A stretch of 47,006 nt of DNA. It comes from a virus (Duplodnaviria > Heunggongvirae > Uroviricota > Caudoviricetes). The DNA is taken from the IMG/VR virus record IMGVR_UViG_2925903241_000004, one strand, 5' to 3'. A program made the position numbers and the translations under genes. The notes under the pieces were generated by a model that was not told the origin of the DNA, ran no database searches, and was given only the letters and a program-made list of their open reading frames with translations. Shown piece by piece: positions 15,242-21,860 of this stretch; the first letter of the stretch is position 1; every line of letters starts with the position of its first letter.

Positions 15242-16059
15242 AACTGGAAGATTTACCGAAATACTACTCCCCAAAATCCCCTGGCCTGACCGATGCATCG
15301 GCCTCAACGTCAAAAGATGCGCTGAGTATCACTGATGTGATGGCCGCGCAGGGCATGACACAGAATCGGGCTGAGATGGGGTTTTCTGCGTTCCTGGGGA
15401 AAATGGGCATCAGTATGAATGACAGGGCGCGGGCAACAGAATTACTGGCAGATTATGCACTCAGTCGGTGCGATCGTGTTGCGGCGTTGAGAAAACTTCC
15501 GGCAGAAATAAAACCGTTAGTGATGCGCATTATGGCTTCGTACGCTTTTGAGGATTATGCCCGCAGCGCAGCGAGTAAAAAGCAGTGCCCTTGTTGCTAT
15601 GGGGAAAAATTTATTGAAAGCGTAGTTTTTACAAACAAGGTCCAGTATCCGGATGGTAAGCCGCCGGTATGGGCAAAGTGTACGAAAGGTGTGTATTCGT
15701 CTTACTGGGAAGAATGGAAAAAAGTCAGGGAGGTGGTAAAAGTTGCCTGTCCGGAGTGTGGCGGAAAGGGTGAGGTTTCCACCGCCTGTAAGGATTGCCG
15801 TGGGCGTGGTGTCGCCATTCATCGTGAAGAGTCGGTAAAACGTGGTATGCCTGTTATCAGAGACTGCCAGCGTTGTGGTGGTCGTGGCTATGAAAGACTA
15901 CCATCAACGGAGACATTTAATGCTATATGCGAGGTGACAAACCAGATAACACGCGCGTCATGGGAAAAAACAGTTAAGAAATTCTATGATGCGCTGGTGA
16001 CCCGGTTTGATATTGAAGAAGCATGGGCTGAGCGGCAGTTAAAAAAGGTAACTAGGTAA
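15238..16059 (+). CDS. Late-gene antiterminator Q-like protein (QuuQ-like) with CxxCxGxG zinc-finger repeats
   Basis: 273-aa ORF overlapping the rusA stop (ATGA); last regulatory gene before pR'/tR', the tRNA and the lysis genes; several CxxC pairs (CPECGGKG, CKDCRGRG, CQRCGGRG). Confidence 0.65.
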   Translation: MKLEDLPKYYSPKSPGLTDASASTSKDALSITDVMAAQGMTQNRAEMGFSAFLGKMGISMNDRARATELLADYALSRCDRVAALRKLPAEIKPLVMRIMASYAFEDYARSAASKKQCPCCYGEKFIESVVFTNKVQYPDGKPPVWAKCTKGVYSSYWEEWKKVREVVKVACPECGGKGEVSTACKDCRGRGVAIHREESVKRGMPVIRDCQRCGGRGYERLPSTETFNAICEVTNQITRASWEKTVKKFYDALVTRFDIEEAWAERQLKKVTR

Positions 16060-16065
16060 CAAGGT

Positions 16066-16094
16066 TGATTTTTCCGGAATCTGTGGTAAATTCG
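16066..16094 (+). promoter_or_regulatory. Putative late promoter pR' (TTGATT-16-TAAATT)
   Basis: -35 TTGATT at 16066-16071 and -10 TAAATT at 16088-16093 immediately downstream of Q; lambda pR' also uses a TAAATT -10 as I recall. Confidence 0.4.
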
Positions 16095-16141
16095 TCATAA
16101 TAATGGGCTTTTTATGCCTGACGTTAGAAGAGTTTCTACAA

Positions 16142-16170
16142 CCCGCCGCCGAGCGGGTTTTTTATTGCGG
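16142..16170 (+). terminator. Putative tR'-like intrinsic terminator
   Basis: CCCGC-loop-GCGGG hairpin followed by TTTTTTATT, about 50 nt downstream of the putative pR'. Confidence 0.5.
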
Positions 16171-16202
16171 AATTAATTACGGACCGTTATTATTCTACTC
16201 CC

Positions 16203-16278
16203 GGCCCTTTAGCTCAGTGGTGAGAGCGAGCGACTCATAATCGCCAGGTCGCTGGTTCAAATCCAGCAAGGGCCACCA
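16203..16278 (+). tRNA. ileZ: tRNA with anticodon CAT, tRNA-Ile2 (ileZ/ileX-like) by similarity
   Basis: 76-nt cloverleaf folded by hand: acceptor GGCCCTT/AAGGGCC, D-stem GCTC/GAGC, anticodon loop CTCATAA, T-arm GCTGG-TTCAAAT-CCAGC, discriminator A and encoded CCA. Confidence 0.9.
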
Positions 16279-16383
16279 TCACAAACCGCCATTAGCTTAT
16301 CAGGAAGAGCAGACGACACGATAACAGGGTTGTTGGTGCGGGGGCGGGTCCCCGATGGCGGTCCATTATCGGTATTCAGCGTT

Positions 16384-16450
16384 GTTAGCTCAGCCGGGCA
16401 GAGCAATTGCCTTCTAAGCAGCTGTGGTTGCACTCCTGTTGTTTCTGGTG
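16384..16450 (+). other. Degenerate tRNA-Arg(UCU)-like remnant
   Basis: TAGCTCAGCCGGGCAGAGCA D-arm and CCTTCTAAG anticodon loop resemble tRNA-Arg, but no acceptor 3' strand or canonical T-arm (GGTTCGAATCC) could be paired by hand. Confidence 0.3.
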
Positions 16451-16599
16451 GTGATGGTGGACTTCAGCAGCCGGATAATGTCGGTGCTGTCTGATGGTGT
16501 TTTGGTGGCGGGTGTGTGGTTGTTGCTTTCCCGTTGCTGAAAAAGAAAGCATCAGGCGATTAGCAGGGTATCAGTTACCCGTTGAAATTTTTAAATACC

Positions 16600-16820
16600 T
16601 CACAATTCCACAGCTTGATGATTGTCTGGCTGCCGGAGAATTTGTTAAAAATTACATCGCATGGTGAATCCCCCTCAGCGGCGGGGCATCTGGCAAAGTG
16701 TATGATCCAGAGAACATGCAAATTCAGTAGACAGGCTGAATTTACCGGGAGGCCCCTGGCACCATGCGACAGACAGAAATTAGGCTATACTTCAGCCCCT
16801 CTCCGGAGGGGCTTTTCTGT
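16600..16820 (+). repeat. Repeat unit A (promoter-like element ... strong terminator)
   Basis: Shares with unit B the blocks attgtctggc..cgg.ga.tttgttaaaaa..cgcatggtgaatccccct, gaattcaccgggaggc.cc.ggcaccatgc and terminal cagcccctctccggaggggct hairpin plus T-run. Confidence 0.5.
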
Positions 16821-17069
16821 GCAGGATGTGTCACAGTTTCCTGAATTCTGAGTACTGTCCTGTTACTCAGGGTGCTATATTTTCTGACGTGATGAAAGTC
16901 TGCCGGAAGGCGGAACGTATCGGAAATGACCCAGTAGAGAAAACGTTGACTCAGATACCGATGCTGAGTTACCGGGAAACCGGCATCACATGACCGCTAT
17001 CCTTCCAGGCTCGCTCCGGCGGGCCTTTTTACTGCAGAAAACAGTTTTCCCGTAAAATGCCACGTTGCT

Positions 17070-17285
17070 CATAATTCAGGCTGGCGATTATTGTCTGGCC
17101 GGCGGGAAGTTTGTTAAAAAATTTCGCATGGTGAATCCCCCTGTGCGGAGGGGTAATCAGCGAGTAGGTATATGGGATAATCGCGGATTCAGGTGCTGGT
17201 ACTGAATTCACCGGGAGGCACCCGGCACCATGCAATGGCACATAGCGCCACTCTCCAGCCCCTCTCCGGAGGGGCTGTTTATATT
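17070..17285 (+). repeat. Repeat unit B (second diverged copy of unit A)
   Basis: Same conserved blocks as unit A with different internal sequence; ends in an identical GCCCCTC-TCCG-GAGGGGC hairpin at 17258-17282. Confidence 0.5.
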
Positions 17286-17311
17286 GATTTTGTCAGATGT
17301 GAGTAAACTCC

Positions 17312-17647
17312 TTATGGACTTTGTTGTTTTAGTCCATAAGGACATATTTGCAGAATGCAACGGTTATTAAAGCATTCATTCAATACGTTATCTGTATTTG
17401 TAGGGCATTCCTGGCTGTTTTTGATTAAATTCCAGAATGTTTTATTGAATGGTACTACGTTGTAAATGGTTACAGGTAGCACTTTGTTATTGAGCATGAT
17501 ACCTGTGTGAGTCAGTGTAAATATACTTTCAGGAGGTAAGAAAGCATCCGATTGATACCAGATTATTAATTTTACTTTACTCCATATGACTGAAAAAGAT
17601 ATTCCGCATGATGGCTGGATAACTGTATCAATTACAATCCACTTCAT
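17312..17647 (-). CDS. Hypothetical Cys-rich protein encoded in AT-rich moron
   Basis: 111-aa ORF; ATG at 17647 preceded by AAGGAAG; low GC by eye (~35%) against ~50% flanks; six Cys concentrated in the C-terminal half; transcribed opposite to the late operon. Confidence 0.45.
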
Positions 17648-17907
17648 TTAGCTTCCTTGTTTATGCCTTGCTGGTGATGTTCTGAAAAGTATAAATGATA
17701 TTTTTGAATATAAACCATAGAGCAGAATTATTTTTCTGATGTTGTTTATTGTTTATTTAAATGCAGGGTGGTTTATATCTCGTCTTGTAGTTTATCCATG
17801 CATATCTGCTTGATGATCAGGTTTCTATTTAAGGTATGGTTTTGTGTTTTTTCTGTGTTACATGTCTGGTATTTTAAAGAATTATTTTTCAGATGGTGGA
17901 AAGAACC

Positions 17908-18096
17908 ATGGCATTTAAACACTATGATGTTGTCAGGGCGGCGCCGCCGTCAGATCTTGCGGAAAAGCTGACACATAAACTGAAAGAGGGCTGGCAGCCG
18001 TTTGGTAGTCCGGTGGCCATAACCCCTTATACCCTGATGCAGGCGATTGCAGCAGAAGGTGATGTGGTGGTCAGTGGTGCAACTGAGCCGGAGTGA
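17908..18096 (+). CDS. DUF1737-like small protein upstream of lysis genes
   Basis: 62-aa ORF (MAFKHYDVVRAAPPSDLAEKL...) in the position where such small proteins precede the holin in lambdoid prophages; an alternative ATG lies at 17893. Confidence 0.5.
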   Translation: MAFKHYDVVRAAPPSDLAEKLTHKLKEGWQPFGSPVAITPYTLMQAIAAEGDVVVSGATEPE

Positions 18097-18403
18097 TACT
18101 ACGTCATCGTACTGGCCCGGCATTCCAGACCATAAAAGACGGTCTGGCAGTGGGACTAAATGCACTGACGCTGACGGATATTACCAAAAATGCAACGTAT
18201 GGCGTTGAGATAGAAAGTCTGGTGCTGGAGATAAATACACCGGCATCATCATAAAAAGTGAGCCAGTCAAATGGAAGGTATCGTTAAACTCACCGGTAGT
18301 GTCAGTGGATCGTCTGAGACGCTTGCATGAGTTATCAGAGCCATCAGTAGTTAACTGGTGGCTTTTTTATTGTTGTCAGCTTCCGGATAACGGGAGACGG
18401 GGT

Positions 18404-18619
18404 ATGGACCAGATGGAAAAAATCACAACAGGTGTGTCATACACCACGTCAGCGGTGGGAACGGGCTACTGGTTCCTGCAGTTGCTGGACAGGGTTTCCC
18501 CGTCTCAGTGGGCGGCAATAGGCGTGCTGGGGAGTCTGCTGTTTGGGCTGCTGACATATCTGACTAACCTGTATTTCAAAATCAGAGAGGACCGTCGTAA
18601 GGCGGCACGGGGAGAGTAA
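18404..18619 (+). CDS. Class II holin / pinholin (S21-like) with dual-start motif
   Basis: 71-aa product [71 protein letters not shown] matches phage 21 S-type pinholins; two Met within the first four codons. Confidence 0.85.
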
Positions 18620-18623
18620 TTCA

Positions 18624-18974
18624 ATGACTCAAAACTATGAACTGATTGTGAAAGGGATCCGCAATTTTGAGAATAAAGTTACGGTAACTTTAGCGTTACG
18701 GGACAAAAAACGCTTTGACGGTGAAATTTTTGACCTGGACATCTCGCTGGACCGTGTTGAAGGTGCCGCGCTGGAGTTTTATGAGGCAGCAGCCAGAATG
18801 AGTATCAGACAGGTCTTCCTGGATGTTGCTGCCGGGTTATGTGAAGGGGATGAGCAGTCGCCGGAAAAGCGCCCCGTAATTTTAGAGGCGCAGAATGTAT
18901 GGATAACCTACAAAGGAAAGCTACCGGGAAGAATTACTGGTTCTCTGAAGACTCCTCCGGAATCACAACCTTAA
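18624..18974 (+). CDS. Hypothetical protein inserted between holin and endolysin
   Basis: 116-aa ORF with GGGAGAG RBS 7 nt before ATG 18624; no recognisable family; unusual position inside the lysis cassette. Confidence 0.5.
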   Translation: MTQNYELIVKGIRNFENKVTVTLALRDKKRFDGEIFDLDISLDRVEGAALEFYEAAARMSIRQVFLDVAAGLCEGDEQSPEKRPVILEAQNVWITYKGKLPGRITGSLKTPPESQP

Positions 18975-19037
18975 GTCACTGACCGGAACAGATAAACCTG
19001 TCCGTGGGCAGAAACCGATAAATCCTGATAAATATCC

Positions 19038-19571
19038 ATGAACGCAAAAATCAGATACGGCCTGTCGGCTGCCGTTCTGGCACTGATTGCCGTCGGTGCG
19101 CCCGCGCCTGATATTCTCGACCAGTTTCTGGATGAAAAAGAAGGTAACCACACAACGGCATACCGCGATGGGTCCGGCATCTGGACCATCTGTCGGGGTG
19201 CCACGATGGTGGATGGAAAACCCGTTTTTCCCGGTATGAAACTGTCGAAGGAAAAATGCGACCAGGTCAACGCCATTGAGCGTGATAAGGCGCTGGCATG
19301 GGTGGAGCGCAATATTAAAGTACTACTGACCGAACCACAAAAAGCGGGTATAGCGTCATTCTGTCCCTATAACATTGGCCCCGGTAAGTGTTTCCCGTCG
19401 ACGTTTTATAAGCGGCTGAATGCCGGTGATCGTAAGGGCGCATGCGAGGCGATTCGCTGGTGGATAAAAGATGGTGGGCGCGATTGCCGCATACGTTCAA
19501 ATAACTGCTATGGACAGGTTATTCGTCGTGACCAGGAAAGCGCATTAGCCTGTTGGGGGATAGAGCAGTGA
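19038..19571 (+). CDS. SAR endolysin (lysozyme, R21-like)
   Basis: 177-aa ORF; N-terminal hydrophobic, Gly/Ala-rich signal-anchor-release segment followed by a phage lysozyme-like domain; follows the pinholin. Confidence 0.85.
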
Positions 19572-20029
19572 GCAGAGTCGCCGCGATTATTTATGCTTTG
19601 GTTATCTGCATCATCGTCTGCCTGTCGTGGGCGGTCAATCATTACCGTGATAACGCCATCGCCTACAAAGAACAGCGTGATAAAAAAGTCAGTGAGCTGA
19701 AGCAGGCGATCGCCACTATCGCTGACATGCAGCAGCGTCAGCGTGATGTTGCTGCACTCGATGCAAAGTACTCGAGAGAATTAGCCAATGCGAAAGCTGA
19801 AAATGAAACTCTGCGCGCTGATGTTGCCGCTGGTCGTCGTCGGTTGCACATCAAAGCAGTCTGTCAGTCAGTGCGTGAAGCCACCACCGCCTCCGGCGTG
19901 GATAATGCAACCAGCCCCCGACTGGCAGACACCGCTGAACGGGATTATTTCACCCTCAGAGAGAGGCTGATCACAATGCAAAAACAACTGGAAGGAACCC
20001 AGAAGTATATTAATGAGCAGTGCAGATAG
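19568..20029 (+). CDS. rz: Spanin inner-membrane subunit Rz
   Basis: GTG start overlapping the endolysin stop; product [36 protein letters not shown]... is near-identical to lambda Rz as I recall it. Confidence 0.9.
19788..19970 (+). CDS. rz1: Spanin outer-membrane lipoprotein Rz1 (embedded in Rz, +1 frame)
   Basis: 60-aa ORF wholly inside Rz; lipobox VVVGC; proline-rich [12 protein letters not shown] as in lambda Rz1. Confidence 0.85.
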
Positions 20030-20060
20030 AGCTGCCCATATCGATGGGCAACTCATGCAA

Positions 20061-20354
20061 TTATTGTGAGCAATACACACGCGCTTCCAGTGGAGTATAA
20101 ATGCCTAAAGTAATAAAACCGAGAAATCCATTTACGAATGTTTGCTGGGTTTCTGTTTTAACAACATTTTCTGCGCCGCCACAAATTTTGGCTGCATCAA
20201 CAGTTTTCTCCTGTCCAATTCCCGAAACGAAGAAATGATGGGTGATGGTTTCCTTTGGTGTTACTGCTGTCGGTTTGTTTCCAACAGTAAACGTCTGTTG
20301 AGCACATCCTGTAATAAGCATTGCCAGAGCGGCAGAAAACAACATTTTTTTCAT
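20061..20354 (-). CDS. bor: Bor lipoprotein (serum-resistance-associated)
   Basis: 97-aa product MKKMLFSAALAMLITGCAQQTFTVGNKP... closely matches lambda Bor; lipobox LITGC. Confidence 0.9.
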   Translation of the reverse strand: MKKMLFSAALAMLITGCAQQTFTVGNKPTAVTPKETITHHFFVSGIGQEKTVDAAKICGGAENVVKTETQQTFVNGFLGFITLGIYTPLEARVYCSQ

Positions 20355-20879
20355 CTTATTATCCTGCATTGTTAAAAACGGCAGAATCCTATGTGACAAC
20401 AATTAAACGATAGTTAAATGGATTGATGAAAATTAAAACTATATAGGTGGATGCTCAGCCTATTGGAGGTAGTCAGGATTTGAATGTCAGTCTGTTGTCG
20501 GCATTCTGGCAATGCAATTTGGATAAAGCGGGGATTAAAAAGATAGAGGCGAGCCGGTCAGGTAGAAATGAATCAGGCTCAAAGTGAAGCGGAAAAGGTC
20601 TGTGGCACAAGCTGATGCAGCCATAATTACAGCCTGATGATTTGTGGAATGAAACATGTTGAACCTCCTTAATTGATGTTATTCGAGTGATGAAGGCATT
20701 CTGTCCTTCTATAGTGTCCAGTAAATCAAACAGGAAACTTGTCCAACGTGTTGGACAAGCCTCTCCATTAGTGAGTTGTATTGATCACAACTCTACAAAG
20801 AATTCATTACTGGGTAGATGAAAATAGTTTCACTATGAATGGAGGAGGCTATGTCGGTGGCTTCTTCATTGGAGTACAT

Positions 20880-21230
20880 ATGCCCCCACGAATCCCACGC
20901 GCCTGCCGTAAGCGTGGATGTGCAGGTACAACCACAGACAGTTCTGGTTACTGCGATAAACATCGTGGCGAAGGATGGGTACAGCATCAACGCGGACTGA
21001 GCCGCCACCAGCGTGGCTATGGCTCGAAATGGGATGCCATACGTGCGCGCATACTGAAGCGTGATAATCATCTGTGTCAGAACTGCCTGCGCAATGGGAG
21101 AGCCGTTGAAGCCAGAACTGTGGACCACATCATTCCGAAAGCTCATGGTGGCACGGATGCAGACAGTAACCTGCAGAGTCTGTGCTGGCCCTGTCATAAA
21201 GCAAAAACAGCGCGCGAACGCCTCAATTGA
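20880..21230 (+). CDS. HNH endonuclease (terminase-associated)
   Basis: 116-aa ORF from ATG 20880 (GGAG RBS); conserved H-N-H/Cys motifs (DHIIPKAHGG, CWPCH); sits directly upstream of the terminase small subunit as in HK97-like cos phages. Confidence 0.8.
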   Translation: MPPRIPRACRKRGCAGTTTDSSGYCDKHRGEGWVQHQRGLSRHQRGYGSKWDAIRARILKRDNHLCQNCLRNGRAVEARTVDHIIPKAHGGTDADSNLQSLCWPCHKAKTARERLN

Positions 21231-21377: not shown

Positions 21378-21860
21378 ATGTCTGGACCCCCGAAAACCCC
21401 GCCACGCCTGCATTTGATACGAGGTAACCCCTCAAAGCGGCCAGTTAAAGACTCCAAAAAAACCGCTAAAAAGGATGAAAAAGGTCTCCCTAAAATTCCG
21501 CAACATTTAGGGGCGCAGGGGAAGTACTGGTTCAGGCGAATGGCGGAAGAGCTGAATGCGGAAGGGATCATTTCTCAGCTCGATGCACGTGCGCTCGAGT
21601 TACTGGTGGAAGCCTACACCGAATACCGGCATCACTGCGAAATACTCGATGTTGAGGGTTATACCTACCGCACGGAAACGCAGAATGGCGATGTGCTGAT
21701 CAAGGCACACCCGGCTGCTGCGATGAAGGCTGATGCCTGGAAGCGGATTCGGGCGATGCTTGCAGAGTTTGGTATGTCACCGGCAAGCCGGGCGAAAGTA
21801 AATACCGCCGGACCGGATGATGTTGATCCGCTGGCAGAGCTTTTAAAAGCGAGAGACTGA
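21378..21860 (+). CDS. Terminase small subunit
   Basis: 160-aa ORF directly upstream of and overlapping the terminase large subunit; basic N-terminus; P27/HK97-like small terminase layout. Confidence 0.7.
   Translation: MSGPPKTPPRLHLIRGNPSKRPVKDSKKTAKKDEKGLPKIPQHLGAQGKYWFRRMAEELNAEGIISQLDARALELLVEAYTEYRHHCEILDVEGYTYRTETQNGDVLIKAHPAAAMKADAWKRIRAMLAEFGMSPASRAKVNTAGPDDVDPLAELLKARD

Follow-up and report, generated by a model that had tools for sequence, protein, structure and literature searches.

Does the gene that lies between the holin and the endolysin of this phage take part in host lysis, or does it travel with the lysis genes as a passenger on late transcription? The question arose from an earlier note on the window (the whole stretch of 47,006 nucleotides analyzed here), which had read this locus as a pinholin/SAR endolysin lysis cassette with an extra 116-amino-acid open reading frame (ORF), and had suggested for the latter either a lysis-timing regulator or a moron. 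All three genes were found as claimed within positions 18404 to 19571, on the plus strand (Table 1). The 116-aa ORF is almost certainly both a member of the YdfR (DUF1327) family and an optional accessory gene of the cassette, and the holin-ydfR-endolysin arrangement is an ordinary one, already catalogued in Pfam, in RefSeq, and in the genome of Escherichia coli K-12. In the best-supported reading, ydfR is a moron-type accessory late gene rather than a part of the lysis machinery.

Table 1. Features of the lysis cassette and its borders in the window
Feature	Position	Strand	Basis and remarks
Terminator-like hairpin followed by TTTTATTG	18337..18365	+	Consensus scan; 12-pair stem with 5 G-C pairs; just 5' of the holin
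Class II (P21 S-type) holin, 71 aa	18404..18619	+	Pfam PF04971; PHROG holin families
YdfR-family (DUF1327) gene, 116 aa	18624..18974	+	Pfam PF07041; PHROGs 2091 and 406
AT-rich spacer, 63 nt, without Shine-Dalgarno sequence	18975..19037	+	DNA alignment; upstream sequences
Lysozyme (glycoside hydrolase 24 type), 177 aa, with SAR-like N-terminal segment	19038..19571	+	Pfam PF00959
Rz i-spanin	19568..20029	+	Pfam PF03245 (E = 9e-50); annotation of identical phage record
Rz1 o-spanin (lipoprotein), nested within Rz, +1 frame	19788..19970	+	Pfam PF06085 (E = 3e-20)
bor lipoprotein gene, a classical moron adjoining the lysis cassette	20061..20354	-	Pfam PF06291 (E = 4e-30)

The cassette appears to be the pinholin, SAR endolysin, and spanin set of a lambdoid E. 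coli prophage. The GTG start of Rz overlaps the endolysin stop, and the hairpin in front of the holin is presumably read through by Q-modified polymerase. The holin matched Pfam PF04971 ("Bacteriophage P21 holin S") with 112.5 bits (cut-off of 26, E = 9e-33) and is 97% identical to S of phage 933W. Its N terminus, MDQMEK, offers Met1 and Met4 as a dual start, and together with the Pfam match this bears out the S21-like dual-start holin described before. A weakly hydrophobic segment (residues 9 to 28) is followed by a strongly hydrophobic one (residues 35 to 55; 15-residue hydropathy of up to 2.09), and two transmembrane segments with the weaker one first, combined with a dual start, are the features that define P21 holin S. 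The N-terminal extension is acidic, M-D-Q, where the holin of K-12 Qin and most YdfR-linked holins have M-K-S. From its family membership and the literature on Stx-phage holins, we infer that this holin would form small depolarizing holes and not large ones.

The endolysin matched Pfam PF00959 (E = 1.5e-23), carries the lysozyme catalytic triad (E35-x8-D44-x5-T50), and is 94% identical by BLASTP to the 177-aa lysozyme RrrQ of K-12; its identity to the R21-like RrrD is 34%. Its SAR features were read directly off the amino acid sequence: 9 of the 18 residues of the N-terminal segment 7 to 24 are G, A, or S, the Kyte-Doolittle maximum over 19 residues is 1.87, K4 and R6 stand before the segment, and a cleavable signal peptidase site is absent, the only A-x-A-like site being followed by a proline. 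The protein appears SAR-like, and its export, tethering, and release upon depolarization are predicted. Surveys of Stx phages class holins and endolysins of the same type as pinholins and predicted SAR endolysins. The pinholin and SAR endolysin reading thus agrees with the family matches, with the sequence features, and with the literature on Stx and lambdoid phages.

The middle ORF had been described as devoid of recognizable motifs, a statement overturned by its match to Pfam PF07041 (DUF1327) over residues 1 to 112 (142.4 bits, cut-off of 25, E = 5.3e-42) and to PHROGs 2091 (E = 1e-68) and 406 (E = 2e-67), both labelled "unknown function." Copies that are 100% identical occur in phage vB_EcoS-640R1 and in E. 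coli chromosomes, annotated "YdfR family protein" in RefSeq and GenBank. The positions that are invariant in alignments of DUF1327 (E6, L7, G47, Y53, E54, and A57) are present in the window protein, and the family motif R-x-E-G-A-x-L-E-F-Y-E takes the form DRVEGAALEFYEAAA. Identity to K-12 YdfR is 80% by BLASTP and about 80% in the core (residues 1 to 72), while the DNA is 88% identical to K-12 over nucleotides 1 to 206. Over codons 1 to 69, dN/dS was 0.23 against the K-12 allele and 0.20 against the H-19B allele, the latter with saturated dS. The ORF is indeed well initiated: its ATG stands 4 nt past the holin stop and is preceded by a good Shine-Dalgarno sequence, GGGGAGAG. With purifying selection, a match to a curated family, this Shine-Dalgarno sequence, and a compact predicted core, it is a real gene.

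That the ORF might be a split or fused piece of some known lysis protein, or have arisen by chance, can be practically dismissed. Database entries that fuse a holin with DUF1327 do exist (e.g., P0025, P0034, and P0041), but the ORF belongs to an independent curated family and resembles no holin, endolysin, or spanin family, stand-alone genes of 71 to 73 aa code for the DUF1327 core alone, and both purifying selection and the confident compact predicted core argue against a fragment. The fusion entries themselves look like frameshifted or mis-called genes. We also considered the ORF as a truncated form of the 176- and 183-aa variants and rejected this, as these variants share residues 1 to 111 and then diverge, in the manner of a mosaic. 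The 116-aa form is abundant, its cluster counting more than 1000 sequences, and hence is not a one-off truncation.

The AlphaFold2 model of the protein comprises three strands (residues 5 to 14, 18 to 27, and 34 to 43) and a helix (residues 50 to 71) with a pLDDT of around 90, followed by a poorly predicted stretch from residue 72/73 to 116 (pLDDT of 50 to 62). The window YdfR has no hydrophobic segment (Kyte-Doolittle maximum of 1.03) and a pI of 5.2, and should therefore be cytoplasmic. Fold comparison gave no informative match, and a PDB sequence search with the family profile returned nothing. The PADLOC defense models and NCBIfam yielded no match for the ORF, and Pfam and PHROGs revealed neither similarity to antiholins or lysis regulators (lambda S107-type, P1 LydB, T4 RI/RIII, and Mu releasin were considered) nor a match in the PHROG lysis category.

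How the gene sits in the cassette is best seen against phage 933W, which shares with the window the endolysin type, Rz/Rz1, and the bor neighbors but lacks ydfR, the stop of its holin lying 4 nt before the endolysin start. DNA alignment delimited a discrete block that opens immediately after the holin stop and closes near codon 5 of R. In 933W, GGGGAGAGTAA-N4-ATG starts R, whereas in the window the same sequence starts ydfR, and the window R is preceded by CCTGATAAATATCC in an AT-rich leader without Shine-Dalgarno sequence. Because the block is inserted between the holin stop and R, the ribosome-binding site of 933W R serves ydfR here. In its 3' part, the 63-nt spacer shows homology to the 3' terminus of ydfR in K-12. 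One could suppose that such an insert acts in cis, by taking the holin-proximal ribosome-binding site and thereby lowering or uncoupling endolysin translation, with the protein mattering little. The change of start behind GGGGAGAGTAA speaks for this, as does the high variability of the insert toward its 3' end next to a fixed holin junction. Nevertheless, a dN/dS of about 0.2 indicates selection on the protein sequence, the DUF1327 core is conserved down to 31% identity at other genomic positions, and in K-12 Qin ydfR and rrrQ are translationally coupled (ATGA), so that uncoupling is not constant. We regard an effect in cis as very improbable.

The holin type was found in 436 phage records against 101 with DUF1327 (including H-19B, BP-4795, YYZ-2008, mEp460, and Stx2 phage 86), and E. 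coli genomes hold 13415 holin places versus 8616 ydfR places. The latter are spread over 4348 of the 5426 complete E. coli genomes (~80%), with up to 10 copies per genome. The earlier note had held that holin and endolysin of this kind normally adjoin and that a gene between them is unusual, which does not stand against the occurrence of ydfR at the same position in K-12 Qin, in many phages, and in these E. coli genomes. Common as it is in E. coli, the family is narrow: among 1.84 billion cluster representatives, scanned exhaustively with HMMER, only 64 matched DUF1327, and when one genome per prokaryotic species was scanned, DUF1327 was found only in Escherichia, in Shigella, and in two metagenome bins. 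These two bins look contaminated. The match to P0161, a 3128-aa repeat protein (E = 3e-9), was rejected as chance, being a 29-bit local match counted six times via near-identical repeats.

An upstream holin was identified in 88 loci, and there the ydfR ATG follows the holin stop at a distance of 4 nt (86 loci) or 3 nt (2 loci); related loci that extend far enough always have a P21-type holin 5' and a 177-aa lysozyme 3' of ydfR. The same order is common to K-12 Qin, H-19B, BP-4795, and mEp460. This strict post-holin position in Escherichia could reflect functional coupling. Only the first ~70 codons of the insert are constant, and what follows up to R is a mosaic; DUF1327 proteins of 72, 103, 104, 114, 116, 176, 183, 206, 263, and 268 aa occur, and in some insert variants additional ORFs on the reverse strand precede the endolysin.

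Divergent DUF1327 genes, all above the Pfam cut-off, were found at other places: one between tail genes M and L, another between tail genes I and J, and a third directly 3' of Rz. The M/L and I/J genes are part of lambda-like siphophage modules; the tail proteins encoded there are 58 to 75% identical to those of known enterobacterial phages. Tail-gene and post-Rz sites are classical places of accessory-gene insertion in lambdoid late operons. The presence of DUF1327 at these other late-operon sites argues that the job of the core is independent of contact with the holin or the endolysin.

Base composition points in the same direction as placement, with a G+C content of 46.7% for ydfR, 54.2% for the holin, 52.8% for the endolysin, and 40.8% for bor. 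As in morons, the gene is inserted between genes that adjoin in 933W, and its composition is unlike that of its flanks. A simple consensus scan of the plus strand from 18404 to 19571, which is a weak negative, detected no sigma-70-like promoter and no terminator-like site. Without such signals inside the cassette, ydfR most likely belongs to the Q-dependent late transcript, and it is not a textbook autonomous moron, since a promoter and a terminator of its own were not found. Thus, of the two roles proposed before, a moron riding on late transcription fits better, in its dispensability (933W), its low G+C content, and its distant insertion sites, while the promoter and terminator that a moron would bring along are the part that failed to appear.

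A moron may also serve the lysogen, and YdfR could act from the resident prophage in lysogenic conversion or defense (stress tolerance, superinfection exclusion, or anti-phage activity), like bor. In line with this, cryptic prophages such as Qin have retained ydfR, 80% of E. coli genomes have it, at up to 10 copies, the gene is under purifying selection, it shares the low G+C content of bor, and it occupies moron-type sites in distant phages; moreover, cold-stress induction of the Qin cluster and an envelope phenotype have been reported. However, no promoter-like site lies upstream of ydfR and a terminator-like hairpin precedes the holin. Since read-through from the holin in a prophage would be lethal, conversion would require a promoter of its own, and none was found. 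No PADLOC defense model matched, and growing K-12 yields almost no RNA-seq reads of ydfR (PMC13232886). We consider such a role of the gene in the lysogen quite improbable.

The other role proposed before was that of a lysis-timing regulator. As a cytoplasmic protein, YdfR would act on the basic C-terminal tail of the pinholin or on the membrane-tethered SAR endolysin, in analogy to T4 RIII, which binds the cytoplasmic part of holin T. Accessory lysis regulators are located at comparable positions elsewhere, and P1 LydB, T4 RI/RIII, and Mu releasin provide precedents in other phages. In Escherichia, ydfR always stands between holin and endolysin, 3 to 4 nt after the holin stop (88 loci), and, given its strong Shine-Dalgarno sequence, YdfR synthesis should keep pace with that of the holin. 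A K-12 ydfR mutant was, moreover, scored for envelope leakiness, appearing in the hit lists of a CPRG screen, in the supplement only (Paradis-Bleau et al. 2014, PMC3879167). This phenotype may, however, reflect polarity of the kanamycin cassette, which is plausible because the Keio insertion lies immediately 5' of rrrQ, the gene of the SAR endolysin.

Several observations weigh against such a regulator. In 933W, the 97%-identical holin is paired with an endolysin of the same type and functions in the absence of ydfR, as in most phage records with this holin. Covariation of ydfR and holin alleles, sought as a sign of interaction, gave no signal: one and the same ydfR allele stands beside holin alleles that are 77 to 100% identical and beside all four holin N-terminal variants. 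An antiholin should always occur with its holin, but the holin is found without ydfR, and distant DUF1327 genes are found without a neighboring holin, the most divergent of them among tail genes, away from the lysis genes. Finally, YdfR has no membrane segment and no similarity to known antiholin or lysis-regulator families in Pfam and PHROGs. We therefore hold a regulator of lysis timing, the main rival reading and one that only its position favors, to be unlikely, the proposal having met with no direct support and being weakened by the 933W, G+C, and distant-site data.

What might the protein do instead? In the literature searched, DUF1327 has one incidental mention, and only Gopel et al. 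deal with the YdfR protein. In their study, a bacterial two-hybrid screen that used RNase G as bait yielded residues 1 to 72 of K-12 YdfR on three occasions, the full-length protein was positive in the two-hybrid assay against Rne 1-597, and FLAG-tagged Rne 1-598 co-eluted with Strep-YdfR; both Rne constructs represent the N-terminal half of RNase E, with the catalytic domain inside it (Gopel et al. 2026, PMC13232886). A short-linker fusion of full-length YdfR gave no signal with full-length Rne (PMC13232886). DNase-resistant nucleic acid co-purified with YdfR, and the authors allow that a contaminant may have retained the RNA (PMC13232886). As the co-purification was carried out without nuclease treatment, the contact between YdfR and Rne could be RNA bridged. 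Overproduction of YdfR changed few transcripts and left growth unaffected, and the location of ydfR in a lysis cassette was not discussed by these authors (PMC13232886).

Altogether, we propose that ydfR is an optional, moron-like late gene whose product has a soluble cytoplasmic core with an activity on RNase E or RNA, an account that, taken as a whole, we see as evenly poised between right and wrong. The gene would share the Q-dependent late transcript with the lysis genes, as suggested by gene order and by the absence of internal signals, and would be translated from the strong Shine-Dalgarno sequence that serves the endolysin in cassettes without ydfR (933W). The product would be a small, soluble, and mildly acidic cytoplasmic protein, with a core of residues 1 to 72 and a variable, poorly predicted tail. 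It would stand outside the holin-endolysin-spanin machinery, which would work without it. Instead, the likeliest activity of YdfR would be to bind the N-terminal half of RNase E and/or RNA, its only partners with experimental support, and thereby to modulate how RNA is processed or degraded late in lytic growth. This RNase E/RNA step, transferred from the 80%-identical K-12 core and from one recent study, is possible but tentative.

[quoted passage not shown] Such tuning would come about through altered processing or turnover of the late mRNA, or of RNAs of the host. If so, the position of ydfR beside the holin would be functional rather than historical, in lambdoid as well as Shiga-toxin phages. 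With ydfR in about four-fifths of E. coli genomes and in many Shiga-toxin phages, and probably expressed with the toxin and phage-release genes, any true effect on lysis timing would bear on Stx release.

Among known cassettes, those of the DLP12 type and of phage 21 have the same holin family and, like 933W, the same Rz/Rz1 and bor neighbors, with no gene in between holin and endolysin, essD and rrrD adjoining. The closest likeness is with K-12 Qin, home of the founding member of the family (YdfR, UniProt P76160), where the order is holin, ydfR, rrrQ, and rzpQ. The K-12 protein is of the same family, at the same position, with the same 4-nt gap after the holin stop, and differs in its tail: in K-12 the tail is helical, of 31 residues, and the ydfR stop overlaps the rrrQ start (ATGA), whereas the window YdfR ends in a "CEGDEQSPEKRP...KTPPESQP" module, its stop lying 63 nt before the endolysin. 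H-19B, BP-4795, YYZ-2008, and mEp460 also have a DUF1327 gene at this position, left unannotated or as a "hypothetical" ORF in the S-R intergenic region. H-19B shares the C-terminal "EKRP...TPP" module of the window, but the H-19B-type core (MKKKYELVVKGINNYPDK...) is of a divergent lineage and has about 63% identity to the window YdfR. Beyond these relatives the comparison is one of functional analogy only: phiKZ Dip (gp37) and T7 gp0.7 are small phage proteins that modulate a host RNA-decay enzyme, RNase E, and T4 RIII is a small cytoplasmic lysis cofactor that acts on the cytoplasmic face of the holin.

The insertion of ydfR, the 116-aa DUF1327 gene between holin and endolysin, coincides with a rearrangement of translation signals in the lysis cassette. 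The holin gene ends with the Shine-Dalgarno sequence GGGGAGAG (18609-18626 in the window). In phage 933W, in which the endolysin directly follows a 97%-identical holin, this sequence stands before the endolysin start; in the window it serves the ydfR start instead. The endolysin ATG of the window is preceded by an AT-rich leader, CCTGATAAATATCC (19014-19040), without a Shine-Dalgarno sequence, unlike the K-12 Qin prophage, where the ydfR stop and the endolysin start overlap as ATGA. Since ydfR thus holds the Shine-Dalgarno sequence and the endolysin leader has none, the insert may alter the amount of endolysin produced.

The dual-start extension of the window holin (18404-18421) is M-D-Q and acidic, whereas that of the K-12 Qin holin is M-K-S and basic. 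M-K-S is also the most frequent extension where a holin precedes a DUF1327 gene: the N-termini of 88 such holins read MKSMDK (n = 53), MYQMEK (n = 17), MDQMEK (n = 16), and IHQMEK (n = 2, with a single Met only). Dual starts are usually explained by an extra positive charge that turns the longer holin form into an antiholin, an account that is not readily extended to the MDQ form.

Residues 73 to 116 of the window YdfR (18840-18974) form a C-terminal module, EKRP(I/V)ILEAQNVWITYKGKLPGRITGSLKTPP, for which structure prediction was poor. This module is an independent, shuffled unit. In the database protein P0146, it is joined to a coiled-coil-like N-terminus that replaces the DUF1327 core, and variants of 176 and 183 aa carry an additional extension of ~60 to 70 aa after it. 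The divergent DUF1327 proteins of three loci (L093:449-667, L094:3001-3285, and L095:503-718; 71 to 94 aa, 31 to 51% identical) are essentially the core alone. Their genes lie outside the holin-endolysin gap: one separates tail genes M and L, another separates tail genes I and J, and the third immediately follows Rz; the small reverse-strand ORF following each of the two tail-module genes has no family match.

Qin-like holin-ydfR-endolysin contigs (L007 and L009, and the source of protein P0068) whose records name a Veillonella parvula MAG, a Bacillota MAG, or Enterococcus faecalis are almost certainly E. coli prophage DNA mislabeled through binning or contamination. The 152-aa protein P0033, from a 710-nt contig, fuses YdfR to a reverse-complement reading around the endolysin start (minus-strand ORF 18971-19312); it looks like a fold-back assembly artifact and not a genuine variant.

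The stretch from the Q antiterminator gene to the holin holds further accessory genes (see the table), including an IraM-like anti-adapter that would stabilize RpoS.

Features flanking the lysis cassette in the window
Feature	Position	Strand	Remark
Strong terminator-like hairpins	16140-16159, 16794-16813, 17007-17026, 17256-17277	+	
tRNA-Met gene	16203-16278		
IraM-like anti-adapter gene	17312-17647	-	NCBIfam PRK09919, E = 5e-48
DUF1737 ORF	17893-18096	+	
Small ORF	18093-18254	+	Directly after, and overlapping, the DUF1737 ORF
HNH-type endonuclease ORF	20781-21230		"Homing endonuclease" in the annotation of an identical phage record
Terminase small-subunit gene	21378-21860		

From the tRNA-Met gene to the lysis genes, the plus strand bears several strong terminator-like hairpins, listed in the table. 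Two of them have the identical stem-loop AGCCCCTCTCCGGAGGGGCT, and the region 16000-21000 is enriched in terminator-like sites (16 observed versus 4.5 expected). Downstream of the cassette, the placement of the HNH-type endonuclease ORF directly 5' of the terminase small-subunit gene is the same layout as in HK97-like packaging modules.
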